Below are positions 10,305 through 27,624 of a stretch of 64,000 bases of DNA, in pieces. How positions within the stretch are numbered: position 1 is the stretch's first letter; each line of letters begins with the position of its first letter. Made by a program: the position numbers and the translations under genes. The DNA lies in NCBI GenBank assembly GCA_965209055.1, contig OZ242374.1, forward strand, positions 5,536,001 to 5,600,000, given 5' to 3'. The notes below the pieces were generated by a model that worked only from the letters and a program-made list of their open reading frames with translations, was not told the DNA's origin and ran no database searches. The DNA is from Acidobacteriota bacterium. GTDB taxonomy: Bacteria > Acidobacteriota > UBA6911 > RPQK01 > JAJDTT01.

Positions 10305-13300
10305 TTAGTTACGGGGGCTCCCGCCCTTCACCGGAGCAGCGATCAGAGTCGGAGGTTCCGGTTCCTGCACGGGGGGGCGCCCCAGGAGCCACCGGGCGGC
10401 TCGTCCCAGGTCCTCCAGAATCATGTAGGTGCACGGCACCAGAACCAGGATGACCGGAGACGAGAACACGACGCCGAACGCCAGGGAAACCGCCATGGGA
10501 ATCAGGAACTGGGCCTGGAGGCTCGTTTCCATGAGCAATGGGGTCAGGCCGGCGAAAGTGGTCACCGAGGTGAGGAATATGGGTCGGAACCGAGCCGACC
10601 CGGCCGTCAGGATCGACTCCTGGAGAGGGACTCCGGCACGCCGTTGCCGGTTGACGTAATCGACCAGGATCAGGCTGTCGTTCACCACCACTCCCGCCAG
10701 GGCCACGATTCCGAATATCGAGAGGATGCTCAGATCCATACCCAGGATCCTGTGTCCCCAAAAGGCGCCCACCAGGCCGAAGGGAATTGCGCTCATGATG
10801 AGCAGGGGCTGGAAATAGGACCGGAGAGGTATGGCCAACAATCCGAATATGGCAGCCAGCGCTATGCCGAAGCCTTGGAGCAGGCCGTCGATCGTCTCGC
10901 TTTGCTGTTCCTGCTCGCCCTCCAGCGAATAGGTCAGGCCTGGAAACTGCCGCAACATGGAGGGAAGGTAGCCGCTCTCCAGTTCCGCCAGGATCTCGTT
11001 GGAGTTGGCCCGTTGAGTGTCCACTTCCGCAGTCACGCTGACGGAGCGATTCCGGTCCACCCGGCGGATGGTTGCAAAGCCGCGGCTCAGCTCCGAATCG
11101 GCCACCACCGAAAAAGGAACCTCTCCGCCCTCCGGAGTCCGGATCCGCATCTCCTCCATCTGCCCCAGGGAACGGCGCCGGTCCGAGGGGTACCGGACCA
11201 TGATCTTGACCTCGTCACGGCCCCGCTGAATCCGCTGGACCTCTTCTCCGTAGAAGGCTTGCCGAATCTGTCTAGCCAGGTCCGCCTGCGTCAGGCCCAG
11301 GGATTCGGCGGCTGGACGAATCTTGAGCTTGACCTCCTGCTTTCCGGCCCGGAAGGAATCGGCGATGTCGTAGACCCCGGCATATTCGTTCAATTTCAGC
11401 TTGAACCGGCGCGCGGCCTCCTGCAGTTGGTCCAGGTCGGGGCCGGAGAACTGAACGTTGATGGGAGCCCCCGCGGCGAAGATCGAGGCCGAGTAGGTGA
11501 GTTCCACGGCATCCGGGATGGTCCCCGTCAGTTCCCGCCAGCGGTTGGCGATCTCGGTGCTGCTGATGAGTCTGCCGTCTCGTGCCCGGGGCCGTTCCTC
11601 GGACGGCGCCAATTCGATGTTCACCGATCCCAGGTGTGCACCGCTAAACTGGGACACGTTTCCGCTTTGCCGGTTTTGAAGGACCCGGGCGGGTTGTTCC
11701 CCTACGGAAGCCAGCACGTGGCGGAAGACGCTGGCCGAGCCGCCTCCCTGGCTGGGAGAGTCGAGCTCCTCCCGAAGCAGCAATGCGGCCCGCTCCACTC
11801 TCTGCAAGGCGCGGCCCGTGACCTCGGCCGAAGTGCCCTGAGGCATGGTCAGGAAGGCCATGACGTTGTCCGCCTCCACCGGAGGGAAGAAATTGAACTT
11901 GATTCTTCCGCCCAGAATCAGGCCGACGACCATTACCAGGGTGGCAACGCCCAGGGCCGCCGTCAGATAGCGCCACTCGACGGCCACGCGCAGGAACGGT
12001 TCGTAGACTCGCTTGACGAATCGTTTGAGCTGGCGCGAGATCAGGTCCTGGAAGCGGTTCCACAACCCGGACAATCCCCGTTTCCGCAGCCTCTCGGAGC
12101 GTCTCAGGTGGGAGAGGTGATGGGGCAGGATGAGCAGGGACTCGACCAGTGAAAAGACCAGTGTGGGCAGGACCACCAGCGGAATGACCCGCATGATCTT
12201 CCCGGTGGAGCCTTCGATCATCAGCATCGGAGAGAAAGCGGCTACCGTGGTCGCCACCGCAAAGAACACGGGAATCATCATCTCCTGTGTCCCATCGATG
12301 ACCGCCCGCAGCTTGGGCTTCCCCTGTTCGTATTGGGAAAAGATGTTCTCGCCGACGACGATGGCGTCGTCCACCACGATTCCCAGCACGACGATGAAGG
12401 CGAACAGGGAGATCAGGCTGATGGAGACGTCCAGAAGGGGCAATGCCAGCAGGCAGCCCATAAACGAAATGGGGATGCCCAGGCTGACCCAGAACGCCAG
12501 GCCGACCCTCAGAAACAACGTCAGAGTCAGAACGACCAGCGCCAACCCAGCCAAACCGTTCTTGATCAGCAAGTTGAGCCGGCTCCGCAGGATGCGGGAG
12601 TCGTCCTTCCAAGTGGTCAGCGTCAGGCCTTCCGGCAACTGGAGCTGTTTCTGCTTGACGTACTCCCGCACGGCGGCGGCAATCTCCAGAGCGCTCTGCC
12701 TCCCGACCCGGAAGACCTGGACCAGGATGGCCGGCTGACCGTCGAACCGGGCCACCTGGTCGGTCTCGGCGAATCCGTCCACGACCCGGGCGACGTCTCC
12801 CAGCAGGACCCGCGTGCCGTCCGGTCGCGAGAGCAGAGTCAACTGCCGGAATTCCTCCCCCACGTAGGCCTGACTCTTGGTTCTCAGCAGGATCTCACCC
12901 GCTTCGGTCCTCACCGAGCCCCCGGGCAGGTCGAGGGAGGATCGGCGGACGGCCCGCGCCACCTCATCGAAGGTCAGACCGTGGCGGAGCAGGGCGTCCT
13001 CCGAAACTTCGATGGAGACTTCATAGGGGCGGGCGCTGGAAAGCTCAACCTGGGTGATCCCGGGCAGAGAGGCGACCTCATCCCGAACCTGCTCGGCGAC
13101 CCGCTTGAGGGTCCGTTCGTCGGCTGGTCCCGAGACGGCTATGTTAATGACCTGGTTGCGGACGATGAACTCCTGGATGACCGGCTGTTCGGCCTCCTCC
13201 GGAAAGGTGCTGATGGCGTCCACACGGCCCTTGACGTCGTCCAGAAGTTCCCGGGCGTCGGTTCCCTCCAGGATTGCCACGTTCACGATGCCCATGCCCT

Positions 13301-13559
13301 CGGAAGCCGTCGACGTGACCTGCTTGACCCCGGCAAGGCTTTGAACGGACTCCTCGATCCGGATACAGATTCCCTCCTCGACCTCCTCCGGCGCAGCGCC
13401 CGGATAGGCCACCGACACGCTGATCAGGTCCGTGGAGAACTCCGGGAAGACCTCTTTTCGAATCTCGGTAATGGAGAGGGCGCCGCCCACCAGGATCACG
13501 ACCATCAACAGGTTGGCCACGACCCCGTTGGATGCGAACCAGGCGACGAGTCCCTTCAT
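10305..13559 (-). CDS. RND efflux transporter permease (AcrB/AcrD/AcrF family), native operon copy
   Basis: ATG 13559 (MKGLVAWFASNGVVANLLM), TM4 GIVVDDAIVV, GVVVNDSLIL, RFRPIFLTSVTT. Confidence 0.92.
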   Translation of the reverse strand: MKGLVAWFASNGVVANLLMVVILVGGALSITEIRKEVFPEFSTDLISVSVAYPGAAPEEVEEGICIRIEESVQSLAGVKQVTSTASEGMGIVNVAILEGTDARELLDDVKGRVDAISTFPEEAEQPVIQEFIVRNQVINIAVSGPADERTLKRVAEQVRDEVASLPGITQVELSSARPYEVSIEVSEDALLRHGLTFDEVARAVRRSSLDLPGGSVRTEAGEILLRTKSQAYVGEEFRQLTLLSRPDGTRVLLGDVARVVDGFAETDQVARFDGQPAILVQVFRVGRQSALEIAAAVREYVKQKQLQLPEGLTLTTWKDDSRILRSRLNLLIKNGLAGLALVVLTLTLFLRVGLAFWVSLGIPISFMGCLLALPLLDVSISLISLFAFIVVLGIVVDDAIVVGENIFSQYEQGKPKLRAVIDGTQEMMIPVFFAVATTVAAFSPMLMIEGSTGKIMRVIPLVVLPTLVFSLVESLLILPHHLSHLRRSERLRKRGLSGLWNRFQDLISRQLKRFVKRVYEPFLRVAVEWRYLTAALGVATLVMVVGLILGGRIKFNFFPPVEADNVMAFLTMPQGTSAEVTGRALQRVERAALLLREELDSPSQGGGSASVFRHVLASVGEQPARVLQNRQSGNVSQFSGAHLGSVNIELAPSEERPRARDGRLISSTEIANRWRELTGTIPDAVELTYSASIFAAGAPINVQFSGPDLDQLQEAARRFKLKLNEYAGVYDIADSFRAGKQEVKLKIRPAAESLGLTQADLARQIRQAFYGEEVQRIQRGRDEVKIMVRYPSDRRRSLGQMEEMRIRTPEGGEVPFSVVADSELSRGFATIRRVDRNRSVSVTAEVDTQRANSNEILAELESGYLPSMLRQFPGLTYSLEGEQEQQSETIDGLLQGFGIALAAIFGLLAIPLRSYFQPLLIMSAIPFGLVGAFWGHRILGMDLSILSIFGIVALAGVVVNDSLILVDYVNRQRRAGVPLQESILTAGSARFRPIFLTSVTTFAGLTPLLMETSLQAQFLIPMAVSLAFGVVFSSPVILVLVPCTYMILEDLGRAARWLLGRPPVQEPEPPTLIAAPVKGGSPRN

Positions 13560-13934
13560 GGTGACACCTCGGAGCCGGAATCCGACTGAATCTGGTCCGC
13601 CACGCCGCCGGTAAGGGGCGCTGGAGTTTCGAGTTGTCGCGCCTTCACGAAGCGAAGACTCCCTTTGCCTGGCCGCAATGCACATCCAATCGTCCCGAAT
13701 CGAATTCGTTGCCTCCGATTCGTGACCACCATGGCGTTTGCTCCGATTTCGATATTCTACCTGTTTGCAGACGATGAGGGGTCGGGGGCTTGAGGCGCCC
13801 AACGCCGACGGCGCAAGGGCCGGCGCGGGCAGAGCCGGCAGACGCGTCGCCCCGGAATCTTGGAATCGGACGGCTCCGTCCCCGGGGAGAACACCGTTTC
13901 GGATCGCCGCCGGCGAAATGGCGACGGCTGTCGA

Positions 13935-15005
13935 CTATGGATTGACCGGACGCTGGTTGCGCTGGACGCCGCCGTCCCGGGGTTCCGGATAGAACTGCTT
14001 GCAATAGCGTCGAAAGGTTCCGATCTCGCCGTCGGACCGGCACAGTCTGGGGCGGGACAGGTACCGCTTCCGGCTCCAGATCTCCACATCCTGCAGCACG
14101 TCCCGCTTTTGTTGCCACAACATGAACCGGTTCATGAATTTGTTGCGCAGGCCCGGAGGAAGGAAACTCAGGCCCATGATCGGCCGTTTCGGTTTCCGCA
14201 TTTCCCGCACCTGCGCGGCGAGCACGACCTCGACAAACTTCCCGTCAACGGGCGTTGCGAGTACCCACAGGCGCATGTCCAGGGGGACGGATCGCTCGCG
14301 GATCTCGACGAACGAGTAGCCCAGTCCAAAGATGCGGGTGAAGGCGGAAATATCGACCGACATGTCCATGATCCCGCCAATGGTCTGGACCCGCTTGAAG
14401 TCAAAGTGGCCTTCGAGACAGGCGCCGTCGACGGTCACCCGCCCGATTCGGCTGACATTGTCATAGCCGTGCACGTACCGCAGGTGCGCCAAGTCCACGG
14501 CGTTCTCCGTCGTTTCCTGGGGATGGCCGGGAAACCGGACGGTCCGGAAGCCCAATTCGCTCCAGTCCGCTCCCGACGGCGGATCCTCGGGAAGGCTCCA
14601 TTGCGGCGGACGTCCGTCGATGCCCCACCAGGCGAACACCATGCCGAGAACCTCACGGATCTCGAATACCTTCAGCTTCGCGGCCTTCGGCGGCGGCGCA
14701 AAGGGAGTCGCGACACATTGGCCGCCGGCGTCGAACTCGTAGCCGTGAAACGGACAGACGAGACAGCCGTCGCGTACCCGGCCTCCGGCATCGGGCCCCA
14801 ATTCGGCCCCCAGGTGCGGACAGACCGCCTCGGCCACGCAGACGCGTCCTTCACCGTCGCACCAGGCGACGATTTCCTCGCCCATCCAGGTCTTCTGGAT
14901 CAGCTTTGCCCTGAGAATGGCCTCACGGCTGGAAACGAAGTACCAACCCTCGGGAAACGGAAGCAGCGAGGAGGCTTTGTCAGGCTCGAAATGTCGTTTT
15001 GCCAT
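13935..15005 (-). CDS. Rieske [2Fe-2S] oxygenase, KshA/Neverland(DAF-36)-like steroid-acting family
   Basis: Rieske ligands CPHLG...CPFHG, mononuclear iron motif ENAVDLAHLRYVH, and C-terminal QDVEIW..K.Y...P.LC..DG.I..FRRY.KQFY typical of KshA/Neverland. Confidence 0.85.
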   Translation of the reverse strand: MAKRHFEPDKASSLLPFPEGWYFVSSREAILRAKLIQKTWMGEEIVAWCDGEGRVCVAEAVCPHLGAELGPDAGGRVRDGCLVCPFHGYEFDAGGQCVATPFAPPPKAAKLKVFEIREVLGMVFAWWGIDGRPPQWSLPEDPPSGADWSELGFRTVRFPGHPQETTENAVDLAHLRYVHGYDNVSRIGRVTVDGACLEGHFDFKRVQTIGGIMDMSVDISAFTRIFGLGYSFVEIRERSVPLDMRLWVLATPVDGKFVEVVLAAQVREMRKPKRPIMGLSFLPPGLRNKFMNRFMLWQQKRDVLQDVEIWSRKRYLSRPRLCRSDGEIGTFRRYCKQFYPEPRDGGVQRNQRPVNP

Positions 15006-15402
15006 TTTCCACCGAAGTTTCGTCGTCTGATGGCACCGATAGCCTCCAAGCCAAGTGGGAGAAAACGAAGCTACAATTCCATTCTATCCGTCATCGACGA
15101 CCCCATTTTTACTTCGGCCCGGTGACGCATCACACGCGGCTCGCAAATCTCCTGTCGCGACCCAGGCGATTTCACGTGGACCGAACCTCAGACTTGTCTA
15201 GGCAGCCATTTTTGCCAATGGTAGGATATAACGTCCTTTTTGCCGGAATTTAGTCACAGGCTTCTGCTTGCCTCAGTTCATGGATTCCCTCAAATCAGCC
15301 GTCCTCTTACAGCGTGCCTGTCGGCCGGCGAGACCTGGGATCAGCTTCGCGAAGCGGCCGGCGAATTCCCGGGCCGGGTCAGCTTCCGGCGGGTAGATCA
15401 CC

Positions 15403-16611
15403 ATGAGGAAGATACTCGGCTACCTGGTTGCGGTTGCCATTCTTGCAGGCTCCGTCTACCTGGCCTATTACCTGGTGTCGCTGGCGCCCGAACCGGAACG
15501 CACCGAGCCGCCTCCCCAGATTCCCTTTGCCCAGACCGGCCGGGTTGCGGCCGGCACCGGAGCCATCCCCGTCTATGGCGCCGGCACCGTACGGCCCAGC
15601 GCGGAAGTCGACATCGCTCCGCTCGTCAGCGGCAGCGTCGTCTGGTTGGAACCGGGTTTCCAGAGCGGCGGGCGGATCGAGTCCGGTCAGCCGATCCTGC
15701 GTATCGACAACGCCGACTATCTGCAACGCCTGCGCGAGGCGGAGGCCGAGCTCGAAGCCCGTCGGGTGGCCCTCGATTTGGCCCGGGAAAAAGGGACGTT
15801 CGCCCGCGCCGAATTCGAGGAGTACTCGCGCCAGCAACTCGAGGCGGGAGCTCCGGTGGGCGAACCGGGGCCCTTGGCGTTGGGGGAACCGGAAATCAAG
15901 GCGGCTCGGGCCGCGCTGCACCGTGTGGAGGTCCAGATCGCCGGCGCCGAGCTGGCCCTGTCCCGAACCGAACTGCGGGCGCCGTTTGACGGCTATGTGC
16001 GCAACGAATCGGTGGATACCGGGCAGTTCGTGTCCGCAGGCCAGACCGTTGGGCGGCTGATGGCGGCCGAGGCCGTCGAGGTGGCCGTGCCCCTGTCCGA
16101 CGCCAACGCCGCCATGATTCCAGGGCTTTGGAAGCTTCGCGCGGGAGACGCCGAACGGCGGGTGGCCGCCCGGGTGACCGCCAGGTTCGACGACGCCAGC
16201 TATGTTTGGAAGGGCTATGTCGACCGGGCTGAAGTCTCAGTCGACGAGCAGACGCGAACCATCGACGCGATTGTACGGGTGCCCAACCCTTTTTCGGCGG
16301 GTGTTCCGGCGGACGGGTCCGGCGATGCACCCCCGCTCCTGGTAGGCAAGTTCGTGGAGGTAAAGATTCAAGGTCTTGTACCGGAGAGCTATTTCCGGGT
16401 GCCGCGGGCTGCACTGCAAACCGGCGACGAGGTCTGGACAGTTGGTGAAGACCAGACGGTGAGTATTGTCCCGGTCCGCGTCTTGCAGCGGGCCAACGAC
16501 GAAGCCGTGGTGGTCGGCGCCCTGGAAGACGGGCAGTTGGCCATCACAGGCGGCATTCAATTCGTCACCGAAGGCATGGTGGTACAAACAGCGGCCGGTT
16601 CGGCGGAATGA
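15403..16611 (+). CDS. RND efflux periplasmic adaptor (MFP), island copy
   Basis: N-terminal TM segment, GTVRP, ELRAPFDG, PPLLVGKFVEV, VPRAAL. ATGA overlap with the downstream RND. Confidence 0.9.
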   Translation: MRKILGYLVAVAILAGSVYLAYYLVSLAPEPERTEPPPQIPFAQTGRVAAGTGAIPVYGAGTVRPSAEVDIAPLVSGSVVWLEPGFQSGGRIESGQPILRIDNADYLQRLREAEAELEARRVALDLAREKGTFARAEFEEYSRQQLEAGAPVGEPGPLALGEPEIKAARAALHRVEVQIAGAELALSRTELRAPFDGYVRNESVDTGQFVSAGQTVGRLMAAEAVEVAVPLSDANAAMIPGLWKLRAGDAERRVAARVTARFDDASYVWKGYVDRAEVSVDEQTRTIDAIVRVPNPFSAGVPADGSGDAPPLLVGKFVEVKIQGLVPESYFRVPRAALQTGDEVWTVGEDQTVSIVPVRVLQRANDEAVVVGALEDGQLAITGGIQFVTEGMVVQTAAGSAE

Positions 16612-19600
16612 GCCAAAACGAACAACAACCGGCGGAACCCGGCGGGCCAATCGCCTATATGGCGGGCAGCAGCGTCGCGGCCAACCTGCTGATGTTCGGC
16701 ATCCTCGCTGCGGGCCTCGTGTCTCTGACCGGCCTCGAGCAGGAAGCGTGGCCCGAGGTGCCCTTCTATCAGTTCGAAATCTCCGTGACGCTCCCTGGGG
16801 CAACGCCCGACGAGGTGGAGGAGGCCATCGTCGTCAAGATCGAGGATGAGGTCCGTGGACTGGCGGACGTGAAGGCGGTCAGGTCCGTAGCGGCCCCGGG
16901 AATGGCGTCCGTCAGGGTCGAATTCAGATCGGGTACGGACATGGGCGCGAAGAGGGATGAAATCGAGTCGGCGGTCGGGCGTATTCAGACGTTCCCGGGC
17001 GGAGCCGAGCGGCCCCGAATCCGGGAAATGACCAACGCCCAGAGCATGATGCGCCTCATCCTCTACGGCGACGTTCCCGAGCGCTCGCTGAAAGAACTCG
17101 CCTATCGTATCGAGGACGATCTCGCTTCCCTCCCGAACGTGTCCCAGGTCGAGACCAACGGTGTGCGCAACTACGAGATCTCCATCGAAGTGCCACTGCG
17201 GTGGCTACGGGCCGTTGGGCTAACTCTGACCGATGTCGCCAATACGATTCGTCGCGGTTCGCTGGACCTGTCTGCGGGCAGCATCAATACCGAGCAGTCC
17301 CAGGTGCGGATTCGGACCCTCGGTCAGAGCTACGATCAGCAGGATTTCGAGGAGATCGTCATCCTCGGCCGCGACGACGGCACAGCGGTGCGCTTGGGTG
17401 ATATTGCCGAGGTGCGCGACAGCTTCGAGGACTCGGATTTGATCGTGCGGCACCAGGGCCATCCCGCCGTGTTCGTTGAGGTTTCGCGAGCCGACGGCGA
17501 GAGGGTGATGGATGTGGCGCGCGCCGTTCGGGACCATGTTGCGAACGAGATAGCGCCCTCGCTCCCCGACGGCGTGGGCATCACTATCTGGAGCGACGAC
17601 TCTTCGGTATTCGTGGAGCGGGGCCTCCTTCTCCTCAAAAACGGATCCTTGGGGTTGTTGCTGGTCTTGTTCGCGCTTGGCCTTTTTCTCGAAGTCCGGT
17701 TGGCGTTTTGGGTCGCCGTCGGTCTCGGCGTTTCCGCGATCGGCGCCCTGGCCGCCATGATGATGTTCGACATCCCGCTCCATGAGATTTCGCTCTTCGC
17801 TTTCGTGCTCGCCATCGGAATCATCGTAGACGATGCGATCGTCGTGTCCGAGCACATTCACCTGGAGCGAATGCGCGGCACGCCGGGGGTTGTCGCGGCG
17901 ATCCGGGGTGCGCGACGAATCAAGGTGCCACTGATCTTCGCCGTGCTGACTACGGTCGTGGCGTTCGTTCCGCTGCTCTTCATACCCGCGGGCTTCGGAG
18001 AGGTCTGGAAGGCACTGCCCATCGTCGTCATTGCCACGCTGCTGTTTTCGCTGGTCGAATCGCTGCTGGTGCTGCCCAACCATCTGTCCCATCATCTGCA
18101 CGGCCCGGATTGGGTGCCCGGCACGAGCATCGAACGATTCGTCTCCCGGATCCAGAATCGTGTCGATTCCTGGTTGAACAGCTTTGTACAGGGGCCCCTG
18201 GATCGTGGGATACAGTTCGCGACGGACTGGCCTGAGGTGACGGTCTCGGGGGCGGTCGCGCTGCTCATCCTGAGCATTTCCCTCATTCCGGCCGGCATCG
18301 TCCCCACCACCTTCGCAACAGCGGTCGAAGGCGACTTCGCAATCGCCACCCTCGAGATGCCGGACGGAACGACCGCGGAGCAGACGTACGCAGTGGCGCA
18401 ACAGCTGGAATCAGCCGGTCGCCGGGCCATCGAGCGGCTTTCTGAAGGCCGGCCCGCGGATGCGCCTCCTCTGCTGTCCGGAGTTACAGTCGTCGTCGGT
18501 CAGCGTTCGCGGATCGAAACCGGGGGCCTCAATCCCTCGCCCACCCTGAACCCGGAAGCCAATGTCGCCACCATCGAGTTCAAGCTCCTGGGCGCGCAGC
18601 AACGGCGCATCACTTCGGGAGAAGTCGTGCAGGCATGGCGCGAGGAGGTGGGTGTCCTGCCTCATGCGCGCGCGGTCACCTACATCAGTGAGATCTACAC
18701 ACTGGGCAACCCGGTCGAGGTCGCGCTGTCCCACCCGGATCCGGAACGCCTGGTCGAGATCGCATCTTCCGCAGTCGCTGGCCTTGGCGGAGTCGGAGGC
18801 GTCTTCGACATACGCTCTGATCACACTCGCAGTATCCCGGAAGTTCAGGTGGGATTGCGTCCCGAAGCGCGCACCCTCGGCCTCACGCTTGATGATCTTG
18901 CCGGGCAGACGAGAGCCGCCTTCTTTGGCGTGGAGGCCGTGCGGGTGCAGCGAGGACGTGAAGAAGTTCGGGTTTATGTGCGGCTACCCGAGGAGCAGCG
19001 TAATGCGATCACCGACGTCGAGAGATACTGGCTCCGTACGCCAACCGGTGCCGACGTGCCGTTAAGCCGCGTGGCTTCGCTGAGTTCTGGCACATCGCCG
19101 CCGGCCATCCGGCGCCAAGACGGCCATCGCATTGTCACGGTTTCCGCTGATGTGGATGCCAGTGTGATTTCCGCCGCGACCGCCAATGACATTCTGGAGA
19201 ACACTATCCTCGCGGAACTCATCGAGGAAAACCCGGAACTCACGTACACCTTCGGAGGTGAACAGCAGCAGCAGCTCGACTCTTTGGGCGGTCTCTTCCG
19301 CGGATTCGTGATCGCGTTGCTCATGATCTTCGCGCTGCTGGCCATTCCGTTGCGCTCCTACACCAAACCGTTCATCATCATGGCCATCATCCCGTTTGGG
19401 TTCATCGGCGTGATCCTGGGTCACTGGGTCCTGGGGGTGGCGTTGAGCGCGGAATCCTTTGTCGGGATATTCGGCCTCGCCGGCGTGGTGGTGAACGATT
19501 CCCTGGTGATGATCGATTTTATCGATCAGAAGCTCAGGGAAAACACTCCGGTGCGAACCGCGATCATCGAGGGTGCGAAGGGACGATTTCGCCCGATCAT

Positions 19601-19787
19601 GCTGACTTCCTTGACCACCTTCCTCGGCTTCACCCCCCTTATTCTCGAAGACGCCATTCAGGCGCAGTTCTTTGTTCCCTTCGCCGCCTCGATCGGCTGC
19701 GGCATCCTCTTCACCACGACAATCATCATGTTTCTGGTGCCGGCGCTTTCCTCGTTCCATCTGCGCCTGACCTCGACGCGGGGCTGA
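16608..19787 (+). CDS. RND efflux transporter permease, island copy
   Basis: AANLLM, GIIVDDAIVV, GVVVNDSLVM, RFRPIMLTSLTT. Clear paralogue of 10305..13559. Confidence 0.92.
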   Translation: MSQNEQQPAEPGGPIAYMAGSSVAANLLMFGILAAGLVSLTGLEQEAWPEVPFYQFEISVTLPGATPDEVEEAIVVKIEDEVRGLADVKAVRSVAAPGMASVRVEFRSGTDMGAKRDEIESAVGRIQTFPGGAERPRIREMTNAQSMMRLILYGDVPERSLKELAYRIEDDLASLPNVSQVETNGVRNYEISIEVPLRWLRAVGLTLTDVANTIRRGSLDLSAGSINTEQSQVRIRTLGQSYDQQDFEEIVILGRDDGTAVRLGDIAEVRDSFEDSDLIVRHQGHPAVFVEVSRADGERVMDVARAVRDHVANEIAPSLPDGVGITIWSDDSSVFVERGLLLLKNGSLGLLLVLFALGLFLEVRLAFWVAVGLGVSAIGALAAMMMFDIPLHEISLFAFVLAIGIIVDDAIVVSEHIHLERMRGTPGVVAAIRGARRIKVPLIFAVLTTVVAFVPLLFIPAGFGEVWKALPIVVIATLLFSLVESLLVLPNHLSHHLHGPDWVPGTSIERFVSRIQNRVDSWLNSFVQGPLDRGIQFATDWPEVTVSGAVALLILSISLIPAGIVPTTFATAVEGDFAIATLEMPDGTTAEQTYAVAQQLESAGRRAIERLSEGRPADAPPLLSGVTVVVGQRSRIETGGLNPSPTLNPEANVATIEFKLLGAQQRRITSGEVVQAWREEVGVLPHARAVTYISEIYTLGNPVEVALSHPDPERLVEIASSAVAGLGGVGGVFDIRSDHTRSIPEVQVGLRPEARTLGLTLDDLAGQTRAAFFGVEAVRVQRGREEVRVYVRLPEEQRNAITDVERYWLRTPTGADVPLSRVASLSSGTSPPAIRRQDGHRIVTVSADVDASVISAATANDILENTILAELIEENPELTYTFGGEQQQQLDSLGGLFRGFVIALLMIFALLAIPLRSYTKPFIIMAIIPFGFIGVILGHWVLGVALSAESFVGIFGLAGVVVNDSLVMIDFIDQKLRENTPVRTAIIEGAKGRFRPIMLTSLTTFLGFTPLILEDAIQAQFFVPFAASIGCGILFTTTIIMFLVPALSSFHLRLTSTRG

Positions 19788-20005
19788 CGGCCGGTGGGGA
19801 AAGTGGCGCGCGCACCGAGGCCACACCGGAAGAACTGGCCTGCGAGGTTCCCGGTTGACAGGGCGAGTGGGGGAGGAGCGCCCACCGGAAGATCGGCCCG
19901 GGCGTAATCCAACCGAAACTCAACGATGGGAGCTGCGAAGCGACGCGTTCTCGCCGGGATGCATCACCCGTCGAATGCCACACTACCGTGTCTGCAGGCC
20001 GCCAA

Positions 20006-21058
20006 TTACCCCCGAAGAGGCCGCCGCGCCACGAAACAGTAGAGCGGTGTGAAAATACCGGCCCTGCCCCCGGCAACATAGGCGTTTGCGGTCCGATCCA
20101 GTAGCCCGACGACCTCCGTCGAGCCTTTCGGGAACGTACCGAGAAACTCGGCCATCCTGGATCCCCTCCTCACAACCTTGCGACCCATCGGGGTCCGGCG
20201 TAAAGCGCCGCCGAGCAGTCCGCCCCGGGTTTCCATGGGCTGATACCACGGCCTGACCGGACCGTGCTGGTCGCTGGCGAGGTCCAACCCTTCCATGACT
20301 TCGAATCCCGCGGTTTCGAGCGCCCGGTTGACCTCCCGGAACGTCGCGATTTCCTTGAGCGCGATGCCGTGCATGAGTTCTCGCTTGATGGCGCGATGCC
20401 GATCGTCGCCGGGATCGAACAGGTCCGTCATGCACATTTCCTGGCCCCAGAAGAGAGCTCCGGGTTTCAGGACACGGTAGATTTCGGCGAACGCAGCCAC
20501 CTTGTCGGCCGCGTGGCAGGTCGATTCGATCGCGTAGCCACGATCAAACGTCTTGTCCTTGATGGCGCTCATCTCCATGAAGCTGCACACCTGGCAGTCG
20601 GTCATGTGATCGAGCCCCGCAGCGGCGTTCAGCCGCTGGGCGTTGTTGCACTGGACTTCACTGACGTTGATTCCGACGACCCTTACATCGGCCTCGCGGG
20701 CGACCCGGCGCATCGGACCGCCGATCCCGCAGCCGATGTCGACTACCGTCATGCCCGGGCGCAGTTCGAGCTTGGAGATCATGAGTCGCTGGTGCCGGAT
20801 CTTGGAGTCCTCCAAGCTCTCGCCAGACGACAGCGGCGCGAAGTGCAGGGATTCTCCCCAACCGAAGACCATGAACTCGCTGCAAAGGTCGTAGTATTCC
20901 TTCACGGTCAGCGTGTGGTCGTAGAGCGCTTCGGAATCCTGGCGGGACTCCCTGTCGGTCCATCCTTCGAAGTCGTGCACGCGGCGGACGACGTTCGACC
21001 CGTCGAATGCGGCCTTCAGCGCATTGGATAGTTCGCGGAATCGCCTCACGGGCCTCAA
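20006..21058 (-). CDS. sterol C24-methyltransferase-like SAM-dependent methyltransferase (ERG6/SMT family)
   Basis: YYDLCSEFMVFGWGESLHFAP (SMT region I-like), VDIGCGIGGP (II), YAIESTCHA (III), VLKPG, and C-terminal GIFTPLY. Likely start TTG 21058 after GGAG; the ORF stays open to 21118. Confidence 0.85.
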   Translation of the reverse strand: MRPVRRFRELSNALKAAFDGSNVVRRVHDFEGWTDRESRQDSEALYDHTLTVKEYYDLCSEFMVFGWGESLHFAPLSSGESLEDSKIRHQRLMISKLELRPGMTVVDIGCGIGGPMRRVAREADVRVVGINVSEVQCNNAQRLNAAAGLDHMTDCQVCSFMEMSAIKDKTFDRGYAIESTCHAADKVAAFAEIYRVLKPGALFWGQEMCMTDLFDPGDDRHRAIKRELMHGIALKEIATFREVNRALETAGFEVMEGLDLASDQHGPVRPWYQPMETRGGLLGGALRRTPMGRKVVRRGSRMAEFLGTFPKGSTEVVGLLDRTANAYVAGGRAGIFTPLYCFVARRPLRG

Positions 21059-21121
21059 GGCAGGCTCTCCAGTCGATCCAAGACGGCTAGGCGGGCAAGT
21101 GACGTGCTTACCCCGCATAGC

Positions 21122-21550
21122 TCAGCAAAGGGCGTGGCATGGGGCATGAAATCGTAGTAACAAGTTTGTTATTAGCAATTTACATGCTGGCCAACAATAC
21201 ACCCTGTGCCCCCACACTGTATCACAGCCGATCTCCCCAATCAGGCACCAAAGTTGGTGAATCATGCAGGCTGGCCCTTCCCCGGGGGACTTGGAATCGT
21301 AGCGCATGAACCAGGCAGGGACTTCCGGCAGCGGCGCGGAGGATTGCCTGCGGTCTCGGATCGGGTTTGTGACCTCAGCAACGCGGAACTTCAGCTTCTT
21401 GCCGGGATCAGCTGTCGGAAATGGATTGATGACGGGCTTGTGGTCTTTCGGCAATACTTCCAGCTTCAGGTGGTGCGCGATAAGCAGGAGATTGACGCCC
21501 AACTGAAGCTCCACCCGCCGATTCCCCAGGCACATGTGCGTGCCTGGCAC
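21122..21550 (-). pseudogene. C-terminal relic of a second cytochrome P450
   Basis: GTHMCLG...VELQLGVNLLLIAHH...INPFPTADPGKKLKFRV..VTNP aligns by eye with the end of the P450 at 22122..24236. Everything upstream of the heme loop is missing. Homology covers roughly 21360-21544. Confidence 0.85.
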
Positions 21551-21606
21551 CCAATAACACTTAAAGGTGCGGATACAGACTCTTCAGCTTGGTCCGTGCA
21601 TCGCCT

Positions 21607-22172
21607 TCACCTTCGGAGGCGAACAGCAGCACCAGTTGGAGTCTCTGGACGCTCTCTACCGCAGCTTCGTGCTCGCCATGCTGGCGATTTTCGCGCTCCT
21701 TGCCCTTTCCCAGGGTTCCTATGTCAGACCGTTCCTCGTGATGGCCATCATTCCCTTCGGCCTGGTCGGCGTGGTCCTAGGCCACTACGTGTTGGGAGTC
21801 CCCATCAGTGCGGCATCGTTCATGGGCTTCTTCGGGCTCAGCGGCGTCACCATCAACGACTCGCTGGTCAGGAAGAATCTCATCGATCAGCGCCGCCGGG
21901 AGGGCTCCGATGGTAAGACTGCAATCATCGATGGCGCCAAGGGACGCTTCCGGCCCATCATCCTGACCTCGGTGACGACCTTTCTCGGCTTCACGCCCCT
22001 CATTCTCGAACGGGCCATCCAGGCGCAATTCCTGGTCCCCTTCGCCGCATCCCTCGGGGTCGGGATCATGATTACGACCGGGATCTTGTTGTTGCTTGTG
22101 CCGGCGCTGCTGGCCGTCAATCTACGCGCGAATTCCCGTCACCGGGCAGCGGGGGCCGTTCCGGTTCCCTAG
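21607..22172 (+). pseudogene. C-terminal relic of a further RND permease
   Basis: FTFGGEQQHQLESL...RFRPIILTSVTT...AIQAQF parallels the last ~180 aa of 16608..19787. The 5' ~85% of the gene is absent. Confidence 0.88.
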
Positions 22173-24236
22173 CCCGTCCGGTTCCTGCGGCGGTGCCGGC
22201 GCGTGCTTTCTTGCAGAGACCGGATTCGTGACTCTAACGACGCGGAGCTTGAGCTTCTTGTTGGGGGCGGCGGTCGGGAACGGATTGATGCCGAGCTTAT
22301 AGCTTGCCGGAGACACTTTCAGGTTCACGTGGTATGCGATGAGCAGAAGATTGACGGCCATCTGAAGCTCCACCCACGGCCGCCCCAAGCAGACGTGCGT
22401 ACCCAGGCCATAGGGAGCGTAGGCCCCCGGCTGCAAATGCTCTGCCCGATCCGGCAGGTATCGGTCGATGTCGAATTTCAGCGGATCCTTGAACAAGTCG
22501 CCGGAGTAGTGTGACGCGGTCTGAGAGATCAGAAGCCGCGTCCCGGGAGGTATCTCGAAGCCACTGACGATGCACGGGTTCATGACTGTTCTCAACTGCC
22601 ACGGAATCACGGGATACAGGCGTCCGGTTTCCAGCAGGAGCCGCTGTGTGACGTCGATGGTTTCGCGAGTGAAGTCCTCCGGCTTCGGTTCACGCCCGTC
22701 ACCAAAAAGCGCCTCGGCTTCTCGACGGATCCCCGAGTACACATCCGGGTTTCGAACCATGCAATAGACGGCGAAGCCGAGCGCGCTCCCCAGGTAGATA
22801 CTGGCGACCATCGCCGCGACGAACGGAAAGGTGAGGTCCGTTTCGGGCAGGAACTGCGGGTCGTTTCGATGGAGTTCGAGGATGGCATCGGCAATATCCA
22901 GTGGCTTCCCCTTCCTCTGCGCCGGGGTGTGCGATGCGATGATCTCCTCTTGGAGTTGAACGACCCTCTGGGCCCCCTGCTTCATCCTGGGCGTGGACAG
23001 CATGAATTTCGGCAACAGGCCCTGAACCCCAATGACCAGCGCACGATGTTCGTACTCAAGCAGTTCGTCGACGTAGTGGCTGCAATCCACTCCCATCGTC
23101 AGGCTCGAGACCTGACGGCTGATATGGGTCTGGAGGGTCCCGGTTGCGCGGAAAACGTCGCCTTCGTTCCAGGAGCCGATCGATTGCCGGCAATGGTGGA
23201 TCAACTCCGGAAGCCGCCGTGCAAGCGTGGCACGGGAATAGGCACCGTGCAGGGACTTGCGCATCTTGAAGTGTTCGGCGCCATCCATGCCGGGAAGTGT
23301 TCGGGACGCGCCGAACAAACGCTCCAGCCCCTCGATGTAGTCCTTCGACCGGAGATAGAATCGGCCGTGCCGGTTGACCCACTGATTCGTGTCCGGCCCC
23401 ATCAAGGCGACGACGGGTTGCTTGTTCATCTTGAAGGGAACCCGGACGACCGGTCCGTGCTTCCGGAAGATTTCGTGCATCGCCTTGGCCATATTCCCGG
23501 AACGGAAGTCACGCACCCGCAGGAGGTCGACGATCCCGAGCTTCGGAATCGGTTTGGCTTGGAGAACCCGGCGGGTCTTCGGGTTGACGCTGCTCTGCTT
23601 CACCGCCTCGGCAACCGACCGCCCCACCAGATCCAACTGGGCGATGATCTCGATCCGATTGAGCTTTTCCTCGTAGTCTTCGGGCGAAAGCACCAGCTTG
23701 AATCCGTCGCAGGTATGCATCAATGCAACGAGAATGGCGTCGTGGGGATCCGGAATGGCGTCGGTCAAGATGGCGTCCAGGACTCTTGCCCTGGCTTCCT
23801 GACGGATCTTGTTGTCGGACGCCGAATAGCTTCCCGAGCGCGAAACGTCGCGCGAGAGCATCCAGAATCCGCCGCTTCGATACTCGAGAATTCCCCTCTC
23901 CACCAAGCGGTCCAGCGTGGCCGTTACGATTTCCTCGGAACGGGCCGCGTTCCGTTCAATCCAATACTGTGCCTCGAAGAGTTCCTTGGACTCGGCGATT
24001 TCGCTGAGCGTCGGATCGAGCAGGTTGTCTCCCGTTGGAGTCGAATCTGTGATGTACAGCACTTGCAGATCGGTGTCGATGCGATTTGCCAGCGCGAGAT
24101 CTGCGATTACGGCGCCCGCCATGACGCAGGAGAAGTTCCAGCCTGGAACCATCTCCAAATAGCCGCTCCGTTCGTTGAGCATCAGGAGGATCAGTTCTTC
24201 GGAAAGGCGAATTGGGATCTCGTCGACTTTGTTCAT
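22122..24236 (-). CDS. GPP34/GOLPH3-like domain fused to cytochrome P450
   Basis: First ~210 aa (LSEELILLML...AGAVIADLAL..RID...PTGDNLLD...LDRLVERGIL) match the GPP34 pattern. The remainder has ExxR (ETGR), FDIDRY (PERF-like) and the heme loop YGLGTHVCLG. Confidence 0.85.
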   Translation of the reverse strand: MNKVDEIPIRLSEELILLMLNERSGYLEMVPGWNFSCVMAGAVIADLALANRIDTDLQVLYITDSTPTGDNLLDPTLSEIAESKELFEAQYWIERNAARSEEIVTATLDRLVERGILEYRSGGFWMLSRDVSRSGSYSASDNKIRQEARARVLDAILTDAIPDPHDAILVALMHTCDGFKLVLSPEDYEEKLNRIEIIAQLDLVGRSVAEAVKQSSVNPKTRRVLQAKPIPKLGIVDLLRVRDFRSGNMAKAMHEIFRKHGPVVRVPFKMNKQPVVALMGPDTNQWVNRHGRFYLRSKDYIEGLERLFGASRTLPGMDGAEHFKMRKSLHGAYSRATLARRLPELIHHCRQSIGSWNEGDVFRATGTLQTHISRQVSSLTMGVDCSHYVDELLEYEHRALVIGVQGLLPKFMLSTPRMKQGAQRVVQLQEEIIASHTPAQRKGKPLDIADAILELHRNDPQFLPETDLTFPFVAAMVASIYLGSALGFAVYCMVRNPDVYSGIRREAEALFGDGREPKPEDFTRETIDVTQRLLLETGRLYPVIPWQLRTVMNPCIVSGFEIPPGTRLLISQTASHYSGDLFKDPLKFDIDRYLPDRAEHLQPGAYAPYGLGTHVCLGRPWVELQMAVNLLLIAYHVNLKVSPASYKLGINPFPTAAPNKKLKLRVVRVTNPVSARKHAPAPPQEPDGLGNRNGPRCPVTGIRA

Positions 24237-24320
24237 GATCTTCCAATCCTGATCGGTTGCCGCAATAGCAGTGTGTCCGCCTGACGCCGGCCAGTTACGA
24301 AACCGTACGATGCAGCCCCG

Positions 24321-25508
24321 TCATGGTGCCTCCTGGGGGCTGGAATCCTGCTGAACCTGGACCTTCATGCCGTCGACGACCGTGGTCAGCGTGGCCAGAG
24401 AGACCAGTTCACCCTCCTTGAGACCGGAATCGATGAGCACTCTCTCCCGTTCCAGGCGCACGACGTTGACGCGGCGGAAACGGAGCTTGGATTCCGGGTC
24501 CACGACCAGCACCTGGTCCTCGCCTCGAAGGGCCGCCCGGGGCAACGCGACGACATCCCGCATCAAACGGCCCTGGATTTCAGCTTCCACGAACATGCCC
24601 ACGGCGAGAGGGGGACGATCCGGATCGGGCCCCCGGCCATAAGGATCGGCAACCTGCGCGATGGCGTGGATCATCCGGGTCTGAGGATCGATGGTCCCAT
24701 CGGTCCGCACGATTCTCCCGGCCCAGGAGTGGTTCCGCTGGCCGAACTCGGACCGCAACCGGACGACGGGTTGGCGCTTCTGCGAGGCGTCGCCGCGGTA
24801 GCTGAGGGGCAGATCCACATACGCCAGCTCCTCGTCGGGAAGCGGTAGCCGAATCTCCGCATAGTCCACGGAATAGATGGTGGCCATGGGAGTCCCCGGG
24901 GTCACGTATTGCCCGATATCCACGTTTTTTCGAAGGACCCGCCCCGCGAACGGAGCGCTGATCCGGGTCTTTTCCAGGTTCCGTTCGGCCTGGGCCAAAG
25001 CGGCCTGAGCGGATGACAGTGCGGCCCGGGCCCGGGCGATCTGGGGCACTCGCCGCAACAGGGGACTGGCCTCCCCTTTTCCCAGACTCTGCCACTCCTT
25101 CCGGGCGACCTCGGCCTGCGCCTCTTCCGTCTCCAGGGAGAGTTGCGCCTGCGCGATCTGGGCTTCGGCCTGAACCACCTGGAGTTGGTAGTCCGTGGAG
25201 TCGATCCTGAGAAGTTCAGCGCCCGCCTCGAAGAAGCCCCCGTCCGCGAGAGAGGGGGAGACTTGCAGGACCCGGCCCGCTATCTCGGGGAACAACGTGG
25301 TCTGGGTTCGAGGAGCCACAGTCCCCTGGGACCTGACCGTCAGGCGGAGTGTTTGAAGCTCTGCGGGAACGGCTCGGATCACCGGAACCGGAACCTCCGG
25401 AGGTCGAGTCTCGACCACAGGCCGATCATTGAATATCTTCCAGGCCCACGCCGAGGCAACCGCCAAAGTCGCCACGGGCAGCAATACCTTCAGCAGAAGC
25501 TTGATCAA
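24321..25508 (-). CDS. RND efflux periplasmic adaptor (MFP), native operon copy
   Basis: QGTVAP, ISAPFAG, PPLAVGMFVEA, LPRAAL. Overlaps the OMF stop. Confidence 0.9.
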   Translation of the reverse strand: MIKLLLKVLLPVATLAVASAWAWKIFNDRPVVETRPPEVPVPVIRAVPAELQTLRLTVRSQGTVAPRTQTTLFPEIAGRVLQVSPSLADGGFFEAGAELLRIDSTDYQLQVVQAEAQIAQAQLSLETEEAQAEVARKEWQSLGKGEASPLLRRVPQIARARAALSSAQAALAQAERNLEKTRISAPFAGRVLRKNVDIGQYVTPGTPMATIYSVDYAEIRLPLPDEELAYVDLPLSYRGDASQKRQPVVRLRSEFGQRNHSWAGRIVRTDGTIDPQTRMIHAIAQVADPYGRGPDPDRPPLAVGMFVEAEIQGRLMRDVVALPRAALRGEDQVLVVDPESKLRFRRVNVVRLERERVLIDSGLKEGELVSLATLTTVVDGMKVQVQQDSSPQEAP

Positions 25509-26971: not shown

Positions 26972-27624
26972 CTGCAGTTTTCCCGTGATGGAATCGGAGT
27001 CCGAAAGCCGGCTGCCAGAAACGAAACCAGTCGGTCGACGACCTCGTCCACCTGGGACGGTTCCGGAACATCCAGAAAAAGGTTCTCCAGATTCTTCCAG
27101 TCGGCGATCACGTGAAGCGTATGGGACATGGCCCCTACCATGAAATGGAATCTCCAGAACGCTTCTTCCCTGGAAAGATGGGGCAGCCTTGGACCCAACG
27201 CGCCGGAAAAACGCTCGATCACTTCGGCGAACTGTCCATAAATCATCTCCCGAATCGCTCCGTCGGGCGAGTTGAAGGCCCGGGAGAGAAGCTGCATGAA
27301 ACGCATGCCGCCCCTCTCCGGATCCCGGATCAGTTGTACCGGAGGTCGTACGAACGCCTCCAGGATCTGTTCCAGGGAGGGCTCCCCCGCACCGCCGCCT
27401 GCCTGGCAACGGTCCAGGAGCGCCAGGCGCTGCCGATTGAGAGGAGACAGCCGAAGGGCGAAGAGTTCCTGGATCAGTTGATCCTTGGAACCGAAATGAT
27501 AGTGCATGGCGGCCAGATTCACTTTGGCCCGGGAGGTGATCATCCGAACCGAGGTCGCAGAGAATCCCCGATCCGCAAAGAGCCCTTCCGCCGCATTCAG
27601 GATCCTGGACCTGGTGGCCAGCAT
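26968..27624 (-). CDS. TetR family regulator, PsrA-like
   Basis: TetR HTH (ILNAAEGLFADRGF...VNLAAMHYHFGSKD) and C-terminal WRFHFMVGAM resembling PsrA-type regulators. Confidence 0.85.
   Translation of the reverse strand: MLATRSRILNAAEGLFADRGFSATSVRMITSRAKVNLAAMHYHFGSKDQLIQELFALRLSPLNRQRLALLDRCQAGGGAGEPSLEQILEAFVRPPVQLIRDPERGGMRFMQLLSRAFNSPDGAIREMIYGQFAEVIERFSGALGPRLPHLSREEAFWRFHFMVGAMSHTLHVIADWKNLENLFLDVPEPSQVDEVVDRLVSFLAAGFRTPIPSRENCR

Follow-up and report, generated by a model that had tools for sequence, protein, structure and literature searches.

A candidate mobile module for lipid tailoring and export, pairing a sterol-type methyltransferase with a GPP34-P450 fusion, in a probably sponge-associated acidobacterium

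What are a sterol-type methyltransferase, a steroid-type Rieske oxygenase, and a cytochrome P450 doing between the genes of a bacterial efflux operon? The window analyzed here, a 64,000-nucleotide stretch of an Acidobacteriota genome recovered as a single contig (estimated to be 98.4% complete) from a probably sponge-associated bacterium, contains such an arrangement. We favor, with moderate confidence, the explanation that the island is one copy of a mobile lipid-tailoring and export module that circulates among sponge-associated bacteria. Its core would consist of a KshA-like Rieske oxygenase, a GPP34-P450 fusion, and a lipid pump of the RND superfamily. In two-membrane bacteria, this pump is an AcrB-type permease with an adaptor, whereas Chloroflexota have an MMPL protein that bears a sterol-sensing domain. 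A divergent sterol-type methyltransferase (SMT) and a flavoprotein often accompany the core. Judging from sequence, the probable role of the module is to modify sterol-like lipids of external origin and to export them.

The gene inventory of an earlier sequence-only reading was borne out: the enzymes and the MFP-RND pair are intact and lie where it had placed them, as indicated by Pfam matches and by catalytic motifs legible in the translations (Table 1), and a scan of 48 window open reading frames (ORFs) found no squalene epoxidase, cyclase, or ring-degradation family. The permease, adaptor, and outer-membrane channel together match a tripartite HAE-type RND efflux system. The channel probably serves both pumps, and the true start of RND0 is probably near 13610.

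Table 1. Features of the island and of the efflux operon that surrounds it (positions in the window)
Feature	Position	Strand	Supporting match
RND0, native AcrB-type pump gene flanking the island	10305..13802	-	ACR_tran 543.6 bits (Pfam)
KshA-like Rieske oxygenase (core module)	13935..15005	-	Rieske 56.8 bits, KshA_C 91.9 bits (Pfam)
MFP1, HlyD-type periplasmic adaptor of the module pump	15403..16611	+	RND_mfp TIGR01730 145.5 bits (cut-off 94.9)
RND1, imported AcrB-type RND permease	16608..19787	+	ACR_tran 520 bits (Pfam)
Divergent cassette-type SMT	20006..21118	-	Sterol_MT_C 59.6 bits, CMAS 68.3 bits (Pfam)
P450 stub, 3' end of donor GPP34-P450 gene	21122..21550	-	ORF of 142 aa
RND1' stub, 3' end of displaced native RND1' gene	21567..22172	+	ACR_tran positions 838-1017, 100.9 bits
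GPP34-cytochrome P450 fusion (core module)	22122..24236	-	GPP34 118.1 bits, p450 122.1 bits (Pfam)
MFP2, native adaptor flanking the island	24321..25508	-	RND_mfp 159.8 bits
NodT-type outer-membrane channel, native operon	25505..27673	-	TIGR01845 264.6 bits (cut-off 210), OEP 102.9 bits

MFP2 and RND0 adjoin in all five of the genomes checked that lack the module, and the boundaries proposed earlier, 13556-24328, correspond to a real insertion between these two genes. The accompanying claim of horizontal acquisition needs to be divided into two nested events, since the recent import comprises only about 5 kb (SMT and RND1) and not the whole island. In the first event, an ordinary efflux operon received the core between its adaptor gene and its pump gene. 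Among eight other congeners, the GPP34-P450 gene is present in six (74 to 95% identical) and the Rieske gene in five (74 to 87% identical), the SMT gene is present in one, and none of the three was found in 22 further relatives. In the second and later event, a piece carrying a P450 stub, the SMT gene, and a foreign RND gene recombined into the island and replaced most of the native RND gene. MFP1 is 84 to 87% identical to the congeners' copy, whereas RND1 is only 66% identical (70% at the nucleotide level) to their native gene and 81 to 97% identical to the RND1 proteins of 24 SMT loci from several diderm phyla. The gap between the SMT and P450 genes, which the earlier reading had not resolved, holds two gene stubs that are scars of this second import. 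The N-terminal ~65 residues of the P450 stub, which also contains the internal repeat D2, match the C termini of GPP34-P450 proteins, and its segment 21246-21545 has 90% nucleotide identity to the 3' end of the P450 gene in locus L006. The RND1' stub has 90.6% nucleotide identity to the 3' end of a congener's RND1' gene, and it shares the repeats D1 and D3 with the 3' end of RND1.

The association of these genes is strongly conserved across phyla, as the proposal of a module had implied. Among 62 SMT loci from other genomes with 10 kb on either side of the SMT gene, 49 contain the GPP34-P450 gene, 46 the Rieske gene, and 48 a lipid pump of the RND1 or MMPL type; all three partners occur together in 41, and only 9 SMT genes stand without any of them. 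Linkage is weaker in the metagenome set, in which the P450 gene was seen in 9 and the Rieske gene in 6 of 17 loci with full flanks. The rows of the SMT tree group largely by phylum, so transfers between phyla are few and are deduced mainly from high identity.

The pump type tracks the envelope type: RND1 is present in all Acidobacteriota (9/9) and Gemmatimonadota (5/5) loci and in none of the 40 Chloroflexota loci, 30 of which have an MMPL pump instead. In a search with NCBIfam-type models, RND1 and MFP1 match generic multidrug-pump models alone, and RND1 has no match to the BstA or HpnN equivalog models. The MMPL variant from locus L018 falls short of both models as well (BstA, 44.6 bits against a cut-off of 1400; HpnN, 115 bits against 751.85). 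Sponges are rich in bioactive compounds, and these generic matches, as well as the lodging of the island inside an ordinary efflux operon, are consistent with a detoxification unit that oxidizes toxic metabolites of the sponge or of microbes with its P450 and Rieske enzymes, caps them with the methyltransferase, and expels them by way of the RND pump. We consider such a unit improbable, given that the Chloroflexota swap in an MMPL protein matching the Sterol-sensing (55.6 bits) and Patched SSD families rather than a drug pump, and that the Sterol_MT_C family is specific, with matches in 0 of 14 control genomes. Further, the enzyme set retains 44 to 97% identity to the window proteins across phyla, which fits one defined substrate better than broad detoxification.

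The methyltransferase, the sole copy in the source genome, has the domains of an ERG6/SMT1-type enzyme (PF08498, 59.6 bits with a cut-off of 21.7; Methyltransf_11, 59.9 bits). Its S-adenosylmethionine-binding Region II, with the motif DxGxGxxGP (preprint 10.64898/2025.12.19.695621), reads DIGCGIGGP, and this motif is present in all 69 SMT rows of related loci, 68 of which are cassette type. Region I, which reads EFMVFGWGESLHF, departs from the GWGxxFHF pattern with Y74 and T78: the window protein has GWGESLHF, i.e., L89 and S78, and M in place of Y81, while Y74, H90, and F91 are retained (numbering assumes no gap relative to the alignment of the preprint). L89 recurs in all 61 cassette-type rows that yielded the motif, while 7 of the 69 rows gave none. 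According to the same preprint, 25 residues, T78 and F89 among them, are conserved in all functional SMTs. The cassette SMT is 42% identical to a bacterial SMT with the canonical motif, and three Chloroflexota loci add a second SMT with a canonical Region I. The cassette SMT belongs to a divergent subfamily and is not a canonical C-24 SMT, which corrects the earlier reading, and the usual first methylation at C-24 is probably not its reaction. The SMT contigs on which Brown et al. ran experiments do not appear among the 44 metagenome SMT loci found here.

In the fusion protein, the GPP34 domain (residues 11 to 214) precedes the p450 domain (residues 239 to 652), which is the GPP34_L architecture. 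The P450 part carries ETGR as its ExxR motif and YGLGTHVCLG around the heme Cys; the ExxR motif and the heme Cys are invariant in 62 of 62 relatives, and the I-helix reads A-S-x-Y-L-G, without the usual Thr. We considered the sterol 14-demethylase CYP51, but the best match (6mcw) reaches only 68.2 bits, and AGHHTSS there aligns with ASIYLGS here, so that the enzyme is only distantly like CYP51 and not CYP51 itself. The GPP34 domain matches GOLPH3 (3kn1, 9.5e-8), whose phosphatidylinositol-4-phosphate (PI4P) pocket we take to consist of W81, R90, R171, and R174; the weak alignment (32 to 35 bits) keeps W81 but places A, E, and V opposite the three arginines, respectively. The GOLPH3 match agrees with the published proposal (PMC11706023) that such proteins bind host PI4P and block phagosome maturation, in which case the fusion would be a secreted effector and its neighbors unrelated. 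This seems quite improbable to us: linkage to the SMT, Rieske, and lipid pump genes is far above chance, a heme enzyme requires a cofactor and an electron supply, and GPP34 starts at residue 11 with no leader seen ahead of it by eye in the translation. The main text of that paper does not contain the word sterol and likewise mentions no methyltransferases or RND pumps.

The Rieske protein carries the cluster motif CPHLG...CPFHG (CxH...CxxH) and the iron motif DLAHLRYVH (DxxHxxxxH) of KshA-type oxygenases, and its best match in the PDB is KshA (4qdc, 9.6e-25). The bacterial C-4 methylsterol monooxygenase SdmA, which the sequence-only reading had listed among known enzymes of this kind, was rejected, the score being 29.6 bits against the NCBIfam NF052579 cut-off of 600. 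No KshB-type reductase was found among the window ORFs scanned, nor was any reductase or ferredoxin partner in the island. For comparison with enzymes of the Neverland/DAF-36 type, an Atlas label of "cholesterol 7-desaturase" serves as a lead only.

Where, then, would the substrate come from? The rest of the source genome was checked for oxidosqualene cyclase (OSC) and squalene epoxidase, and neither these nor a cyclase N-domain was matched (PF13249, PF08491, and TIGR03463); the genome does not encode the OSC and squalene epoxidase pair that marks a de novo sterol cluster. The module might still finish a de novo sterol pathway whose cyclase is unrecognized or encoded elsewhere. Such a role is suggested by OSC-like genes in 2 of 36 carrier genomes (703 and 718 bits; source genome included in the census), by the ability of the source genome to make squalene, and by its sole PF13243 match, a 403-amino-acid protein with a weak cyclase-repeat score of 29.6 bits. 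We judge it highly improbable, as the match of that protein spans just ~105 positions of a single cyclase domain and the failure to match the sterol families extends over a nearly complete single-contig genome. ERG4_ERG24 had no match there either, which is no proof of absence, since the search was silent in all control genomes.

In our estimation, it is fairly unlikely that the module acts on an isoprenoid lipid made by the cell itself and other than a sterol, for instance squalene, a hopanoid, or a carotenoid-like lipid. In that case, the target of the SMT-like enzyme would be an acyclic or hopanoid double bond, and the product would reach the outer membrane by way of the pump. Botryococcus has squalene methyltransferases related to SMTs, and the cassette SMT differs at positions that functional sterol SMTs keep unchanged. 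The source genome encodes HpnC, HpnD, and HpnE for squalene synthesis, followed by an MpaB/Lcp-type oxygenase and an MMPL pump, which makes squalene a possible endogenous substrate. Further, 19 of the 36 carriers have cyclase scores of 187 to 275 bits; these are probably hopene cyclases, and the three inspected sit in hopanoid hpn clusters. Another 3 carriers have weak cyclase matches. The remaining 12, the source genome among them, lack any cyclase match, which rules out hopanoids as the substrate common to all carriers. Also against a non-sterol substrate, MMPL and GPP34-P450 paralogues in genome G031 lie directly beside a squalene epoxidase gene and an OSC-like cyclase gene, the canonical-motif SMTs join the cassette in the three Chloroflexota loci, and the best solved relatives of the two oxygenases act on steroids (KshA, CYP51, CYP46A1, and CYP24A1). 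The earlier view that the substrate is exogenous sterol is thus upheld in part: the lack of cyclase and squalene epoxidase matches agrees with it, while HpnCDE leaves an exclusively exogenous source insecure. As an OSC-like gene occurs in just 2 of 36 carriers, and not here, we infer that action on exogenous sterols is favored; nearly all examined carriers would modify sterols made by others rather than synthesize them.

In the module as we favor it, the substrate would be a sterol-like lipid in the cytoplasmic membrane, here most likely obtained from outside (the host or neighbors) because the source genome has no cyclase. Soluble enzymes at the inner face of that membrane would methylate it and oxidize or desaturate it, with the GPP34 domain perhaps serving as the membrane dock of the P450. 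The product would then be taken up by the pump and, by way of the outer-membrane channel that the two pumps share, delivered to the outer membrane or released from the cell.

Earlier publications describe the SMTs of symbionts and, separately, the fusion of GPP34 with P450, and our literature search found no paper that joins them, in agreement with the earlier impression that the combination was undescribed. Two sponge-symbiont hallmarks that have been treated apart would thus belong to one mobile module with a steroid-type Rieske enzyme and a lipid pump, which bears on the producers of the unusual side-chain-alkylated sterols that serve as sponge biomarkers and on the function of GPP34-P450. 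A more specific idea, which we regard as unlikely, is that bacteria use this module to make, from host or dietary sterols, the unconventional sterols by which symbiont-rich sponges are marked. If so, the divergent SMT would methylate a position other than that of the first C-24 step, e.g., C-26 or C-28; desaturation or hydroxylation of the sterol would fall to the Rieske enzyme and the Thr-less GPP34-P450, and the pump would return the products to the host. GPP34-P450 would then be a sterol enzyme and not a phosphoinositide effector, and the "sponge" sterane biomarker record would in part rest on symbionts that are themselves unable to make sterols. The genus offers a natural comparison: some close relatives lack the module, and of those that carry it some have the SMT and some do not, so that sterol profiles of their host samples could be compared directly.

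Several known systems resemble parts of this module. KshA, the best solved relative of the window Rieske protein, shares with it the Rieske cluster motifs, the mononuclear iron motif, and the KshA_C catalytic domain, but similarity is low (90.7 bits), and neither steroid catabolic genes nor a KshB-type partner lies near the window gene. BstA (sterols, Methylococcus) and HpnN (hopanoids) are likewise RND-superfamily transporters encoded beside triterpenoid-modifying genes; unlike them, RND1 is of the AcrB type, working with an adaptor and an outer-membrane channel. The GPP34_L proteins (Microbiome 2025, PMC11706023) share two-domain architecture and habitat with the window protein. That study reports GPP34 plus P450 proteins solely from sponge symbionts, two GPP34 plus Rieske fusions, and expression in an Aplysina metatranscriptome, and proposes PI4P binding and escape from phagocytosis, whereas the gene context here points to lipid tailoring. 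Finally, the de novo sterol clusters of sponge symbionts (Brown et al. 2023, PMC10070321; Kelly et al. 2022, PMC9531527) also contain a sterol-type methyltransferase from uncultured bacteria, and those SMTs likewise spread by gene transfer and sit in lipid gene clusters. The published clusters hold squalene epoxidase-OSC, CYP51, ERG24, SdmA, and SdmB, all of which are absent from the module described here; in contrast, the module occurs mostly in genomes without OSC and adds the GPP34-P450 fusion, the KshA-like Rieske oxygenase, and the pump.

The genome of the window (G000) is a single contig of 6.08 Mb, with an estimated completeness of 98.4% and a G+C content of ~63%. Pfam bore out all of the genes named in an earlier sequence-only reading of the island, and the cofactor and catalytic motifs of the island enzymes are intact in their translations. 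Cyclase, squalene epoxidase, and steroid ring-degradation families had no match among the 48 window ORFs scanned, in line with that reading. Third-position G+C is lower over 29883-31331, a stretch that contains a gene for an AAA_14 + DUF4143 ATPase (29994-31331, plus strand), overlapped on the opposite strand by a 429-aa ORF; a gene resembling the ATPase gene is found near the third GPP34-P450 paralogue of the genome (L138:4026-5195).

Features of the island, of its genome (G000), and of other carrier genomes (G) and fetched loci (L, own coordinates); coordinates without a prefix are those of the window
Feature	Position	Strand	Basis or remark
RND0, second RND permease	10305-13802		one flank of block
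Rieske + KshA_C oxygenase	13935-15005	minus	Pfam
MFP1, adaptor	15403-16611	plus	Pfam
RND1, AcrB-type RND permease	16608-19787	plus	Pfam
SMT, methyltransferase with sterol-methyltransferase C-terminal domain	20006-21118	minus	Pfam
Stub beginning with fragment of donor P450	21122-21550		between SMT and P450
Stub, 3' end of displaced native RND gene	21567-22172		90.6% DNA identity to congener
GPP34 + cytochrome P450 fusion	22122-24236	minus	Pfam
MFP2, second adaptor + outer-membrane channel	24321-27673		other flank of block
HpnC-HpnD-HpnE-oxygenase-MMPL (sterol-sensing domain)	G000:C1:112925-119947 (L144:6925-13947)		copy near G000:C1:540000
GPP34-P450 paralogue	G000:C1:2846633-2849806 (L137:7633-10806)
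GPP34-P450 paralogue	G000:C1:361527-364824 (L138:5527-8824)
Weak cyclase-like frame	G006:C1:4294795-4296594
Weak cyclase-like frame	G008:C1:826682-828481
Weak cyclase-like frame	G002:C1:3340727-3341089
Second SMT with canonical Region I	L029:14450-15523
Second SMT with canonical Region I	L052:17220-18248
Second SMT with canonical Region I	L064:14435-15451

The block is horizontally acquired, as had been proposed, and its boundaries are those of that proposal (13556 and 24328). MFP2 directly adjoins RND0 in all five module-free genomes (one congener and four from a sister genus), and among 30 relatives surveyed, the GPP34-P450 gene was found in six of the eight other congeners and the Rieske gene in five of them, both being absent from the 22 further relatives, while the SMT gene was found in only one of the eight congeners. 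Because of this adjacency and distribution, we place the insertion of the ~10.5-kb block inside this genus. Four congeners (G037 to G040) carry the block without SMT; in these, the RND gene shares only 66% (protein) and 70% (DNA) identity with the window RND1, and the flanking genes are 85 to 90% identical to those of the window at the DNA level. This one genus thus spans a natural series of genomes that lack the module, have it but not SMT, or have both. Window positions 15370-21545 share 89 to 90% DNA identity with a locus from a MAG titled Bryobacterales (L006), in a match that takes in 300 bases of the 3' end of the L006 P450 gene. Both of the small ORFs that separate SMT from P450 are scars. 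The divergence of RND1 from the congeners' RND gene, the identity to L006, and the stubs therefore indicate a second, recent recombination that imported SMT together with a foreign RND gene. The island ends showed neither terminal repeats nor an integrase or tRNA, and the only meaningful repeats at the island are the two stubs.

In sequencing runs, summed contig depth (a poor measure) over 16.8-21.4 kb was several-fold higher than over the flanks in four of four runs, as would fit samples that contain numerous similar copies of RND1-SMT. In a sponge metatranscriptome, a fraction of 0.10 of the sampled words was found, and contigs 90 to 95% alike span parts of RND1 and SMT (e.g., 18007-18340 and 20435-20845). 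We rejected these contigs as evidence of expression, since they come from relatives and DNA carry-over is possible.

The module is linked across phyla. Scanning one genome per species, we analyzed the best 80 of 361 SMT relatives, which are 67 to 96% identical to the window SMT and whose record titles name Acidobacteriota, Chloroflexota/Dehalococcoidia, Gemmatimonadota, Gamma- and Alphaproteobacteria, Thermodesulfobacteriota, Latescibacterota, Rhodothermales, and Acidimicrobiales. In the 62 loci where SMT is flanked by 10 kb on both sides, a P450 gene is present in 49, a Rieske gene in 46, a pump gene in 48, and all three in 41, so that the gene association, whose co-occurrence elsewhere the sequence-only reading had proposed as a check, is conserved in several phyla; an amine-oxidase-type flavoprotein gene occurs in 26 loci, and SMT lacks any partner in nine. 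Linkage was weaker in the 44 metagenome contigs (17 have full flanks, and of these nine contain the P450 gene and six the Rieske gene), several of which belong to accession series listed as Petrosia, Sarcotragus, and Aplysina metagenomes by Brown et al. (PMC10070321). In an SMT tree of 69 rows, out of 81 available (the window and 80 loci), rows cluster largely by phylum with a few nested exceptions; 12 loci were left out where an antisense frame or short ORF had been picked, including the Rhodothermales locus L076, and the long branch of L029 stems from that locus's second, canonical SMT. Transfer between phyla is suggested mainly by the small divergence. The cassette flavoprotein is also encoded in G000, away from the island, and is 79 to 84% identical to cassette-linked copies in other phyla; its gene (G000:C1:3274428-3275783; L139:8410-9786) is isolated, at a distance of 2.26 Mb from the island, and those copies are from Chloroflexota and Vicinamibacteraceae MAGs. 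Genes for an LppX/LprAFG-type lipoprotein and an MFS transporter recur near the cassette (L018:12311-14538 and seven to eight other Chloroflexota loci), a pairing similar to that of LprG and P55 in mycobacterial lipid export.

The SAM motif and the C-terminal domain specific to SMTs are both present in the window SMT, whose Region I reads EFMVFGWGESLHF. A preprint (10.64898/2025.12.19.695621) counts Y74, T78, and GWGxxFHF among the 25 residues that all functional SMTs conserve; the window SMT departs at S78 and L89 and also at M81. The motif was recognized in 61 cassette-type rows, all of which have L89, and was not found in 7 of the 69 rows. Beside the cassette SMT, three Chloroflexota loci encode another SMT, which has the canonical YEYGWGRSFHF and is 42% identical to the window SMT. 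The cassette SMTs thus form a conserved, divergent subfamily, for which, by the preprint's criterion, ordinary C-24 methylation of desmosterol is doubtful. The 44 metagenome loci include none of the contigs from which Brown et al. tested SMTs; as the scan registers pattern matches only, this does not imply unrelatedness.

The best solved relative of the Rieske protein is KshA. With the SdmA model it scores 29.6 bits, far below the cut-off of 600, and placing it relative to Neverland by named relatives failed, as the best 120 of 1760 matches belong to its own clade and bear generic or no names. As leads only, the Atlas gave it the automatic name "cholesterol 7-desaturase" and returned generic P450 clusters for the P450, whose closest relatives of known structure are CYP51s, CYP24A1, CYP120, and CYP46A1, with scores of only 57 to 68 bits. 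The I-helix of the P450 has the sequence A-S-x-Y-L-G, which lacks the usual threonine and is kept in 57 to 60 of 62 relatives, among which the heme cysteine and ExxR are invariant. The GPP34 domain aligns weakly to GOLPH3 and, of the four residues that we take to line the GOLPH3 PI4P pocket, retains only the tryptophan. The chemistry offered in the sequence-only reading (C-24 alkylation with 7-desaturation, 9-hydroxylation, or C-4 demethylation) is unsupported in detail. Two further GPP34-P450 paralogues in G000 are 37% and 34% identical to the island copy and, unlike it, retain the usual I-helix threonine; a sulfotransferase gene follows one of them and a membrane acyltransferase gene follows the other, and thus each GPP34-P450 in G000 is paired with a group-transfer enzyme.

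Regarding the origin of the substrate, we screened 36 carriers for matches to the cyclase N-domain family and to an oxidosqualene cyclase (OSC) model. OSC is absent from most carriers: scores were OSC-like in two (G009, 718 bits, in a squalene epoxidase fusion; G031, 703 bits), 187 to 275 bits in 19, and weak in three, and 12 genomes, including G000, had no match to either model. Hopanoid clusters with HpnC, HpnD, HpnE, HpnG, and HpnH surround all three of the 19 mid-score cyclases inspected. Three Acidobacteriota carriers have open frames of 641 to 681 aa that are only weakly similar to terpene cyclases (35 to 64 bits with the OSC model) and could represent divergent cyclases. A search of the rest of G000 for OSC and squalene epoxidase, a further check proposed earlier, found neither; the sole cyclase-like match is a 403-aa protein covering ~105 positions of one domain. 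An ERG4_ERG24 search of G000 had no match and was silent in every control genome, and so is no proof of absence. In the Dehalococcoidia genome G031, a second MMPL + GPP34-P450 pair directly adjoins, tail to tail, an OSC-like gene and squalene epoxidase (L087:4500-12365), tying the GPP34-P450 family to cyclized triterpenoids; CYP51, ERG24, and SdmA genes were not found within the 20 kb fetched around that locus. An exogenous origin of the module's substrate is plausible. In G000, genes for HpnC, HpnD, and HpnE precede those for an MpaB/Lcp-type oxygenase and an MMPL pump; the genome can therefore probably make squalene, which counts against a purely exogenous substrate. The 16-kb stretch examined around these genes occurs twice in G000, as an inverted repeat with 99.5% identity.

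Pump type tracks envelope type across SMT loci: two-membrane phyla carry an RND1-type permease (81 to 97% identical), and in 30 of 40 Chloroflexota loci the gene directly upstream of SMT encodes an MMPL protein of ~827 aa that has a sterol-sensing/Patched domain. Neither pump type reached the BstA or HpnN model. We hypothesize that SMT methylates a sterol-like lipid in the cytoplasmic membrane, that the Rieske enzyme and the P450, the latter held at the membrane by its GPP34 domain, oxidize or desaturate it, and that the RND or MMPL pump would move the product outward, a direction suggested by analogy with RND pumps in general. There is good support for reading the island as a conserved module that was acquired and that tailors and exports a lipid, and its substrate is likely a sterol.

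Literature searching outside subscription journals found no published account joining SMT, GPP34-P450, Rieske, and pump, in keeping with the earlier view that this combination had not been described as a system. ERG24-CYP51-LSS clusters and SMT enrichment have been reported (Kelly et al. 2022, PMC9531527), and symbiont SMTs occur in de novo clusters with OSC, CYP51, ERG24, and SdmAB (Brown et al. 2023, PMC10070321), in a main text that does not contain the words "Rieske," "P450," or "transporter." In contrast to those clusters, the island has a Rieske protein that fails the SdmA model and a P450 distant from CYP51. GPP34+P450 proteins have been described as exclusive to sponge symbionts, along with two GPP34+Rieske fusions, and escape from phagocytosis was proposed for the former (PMC11706023); the word "sterol" is absent from the main text and the one supplement searched. 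Those GPP34+P450 proteins have the same domain pairing as the GPP34-P450 fusion of the island.
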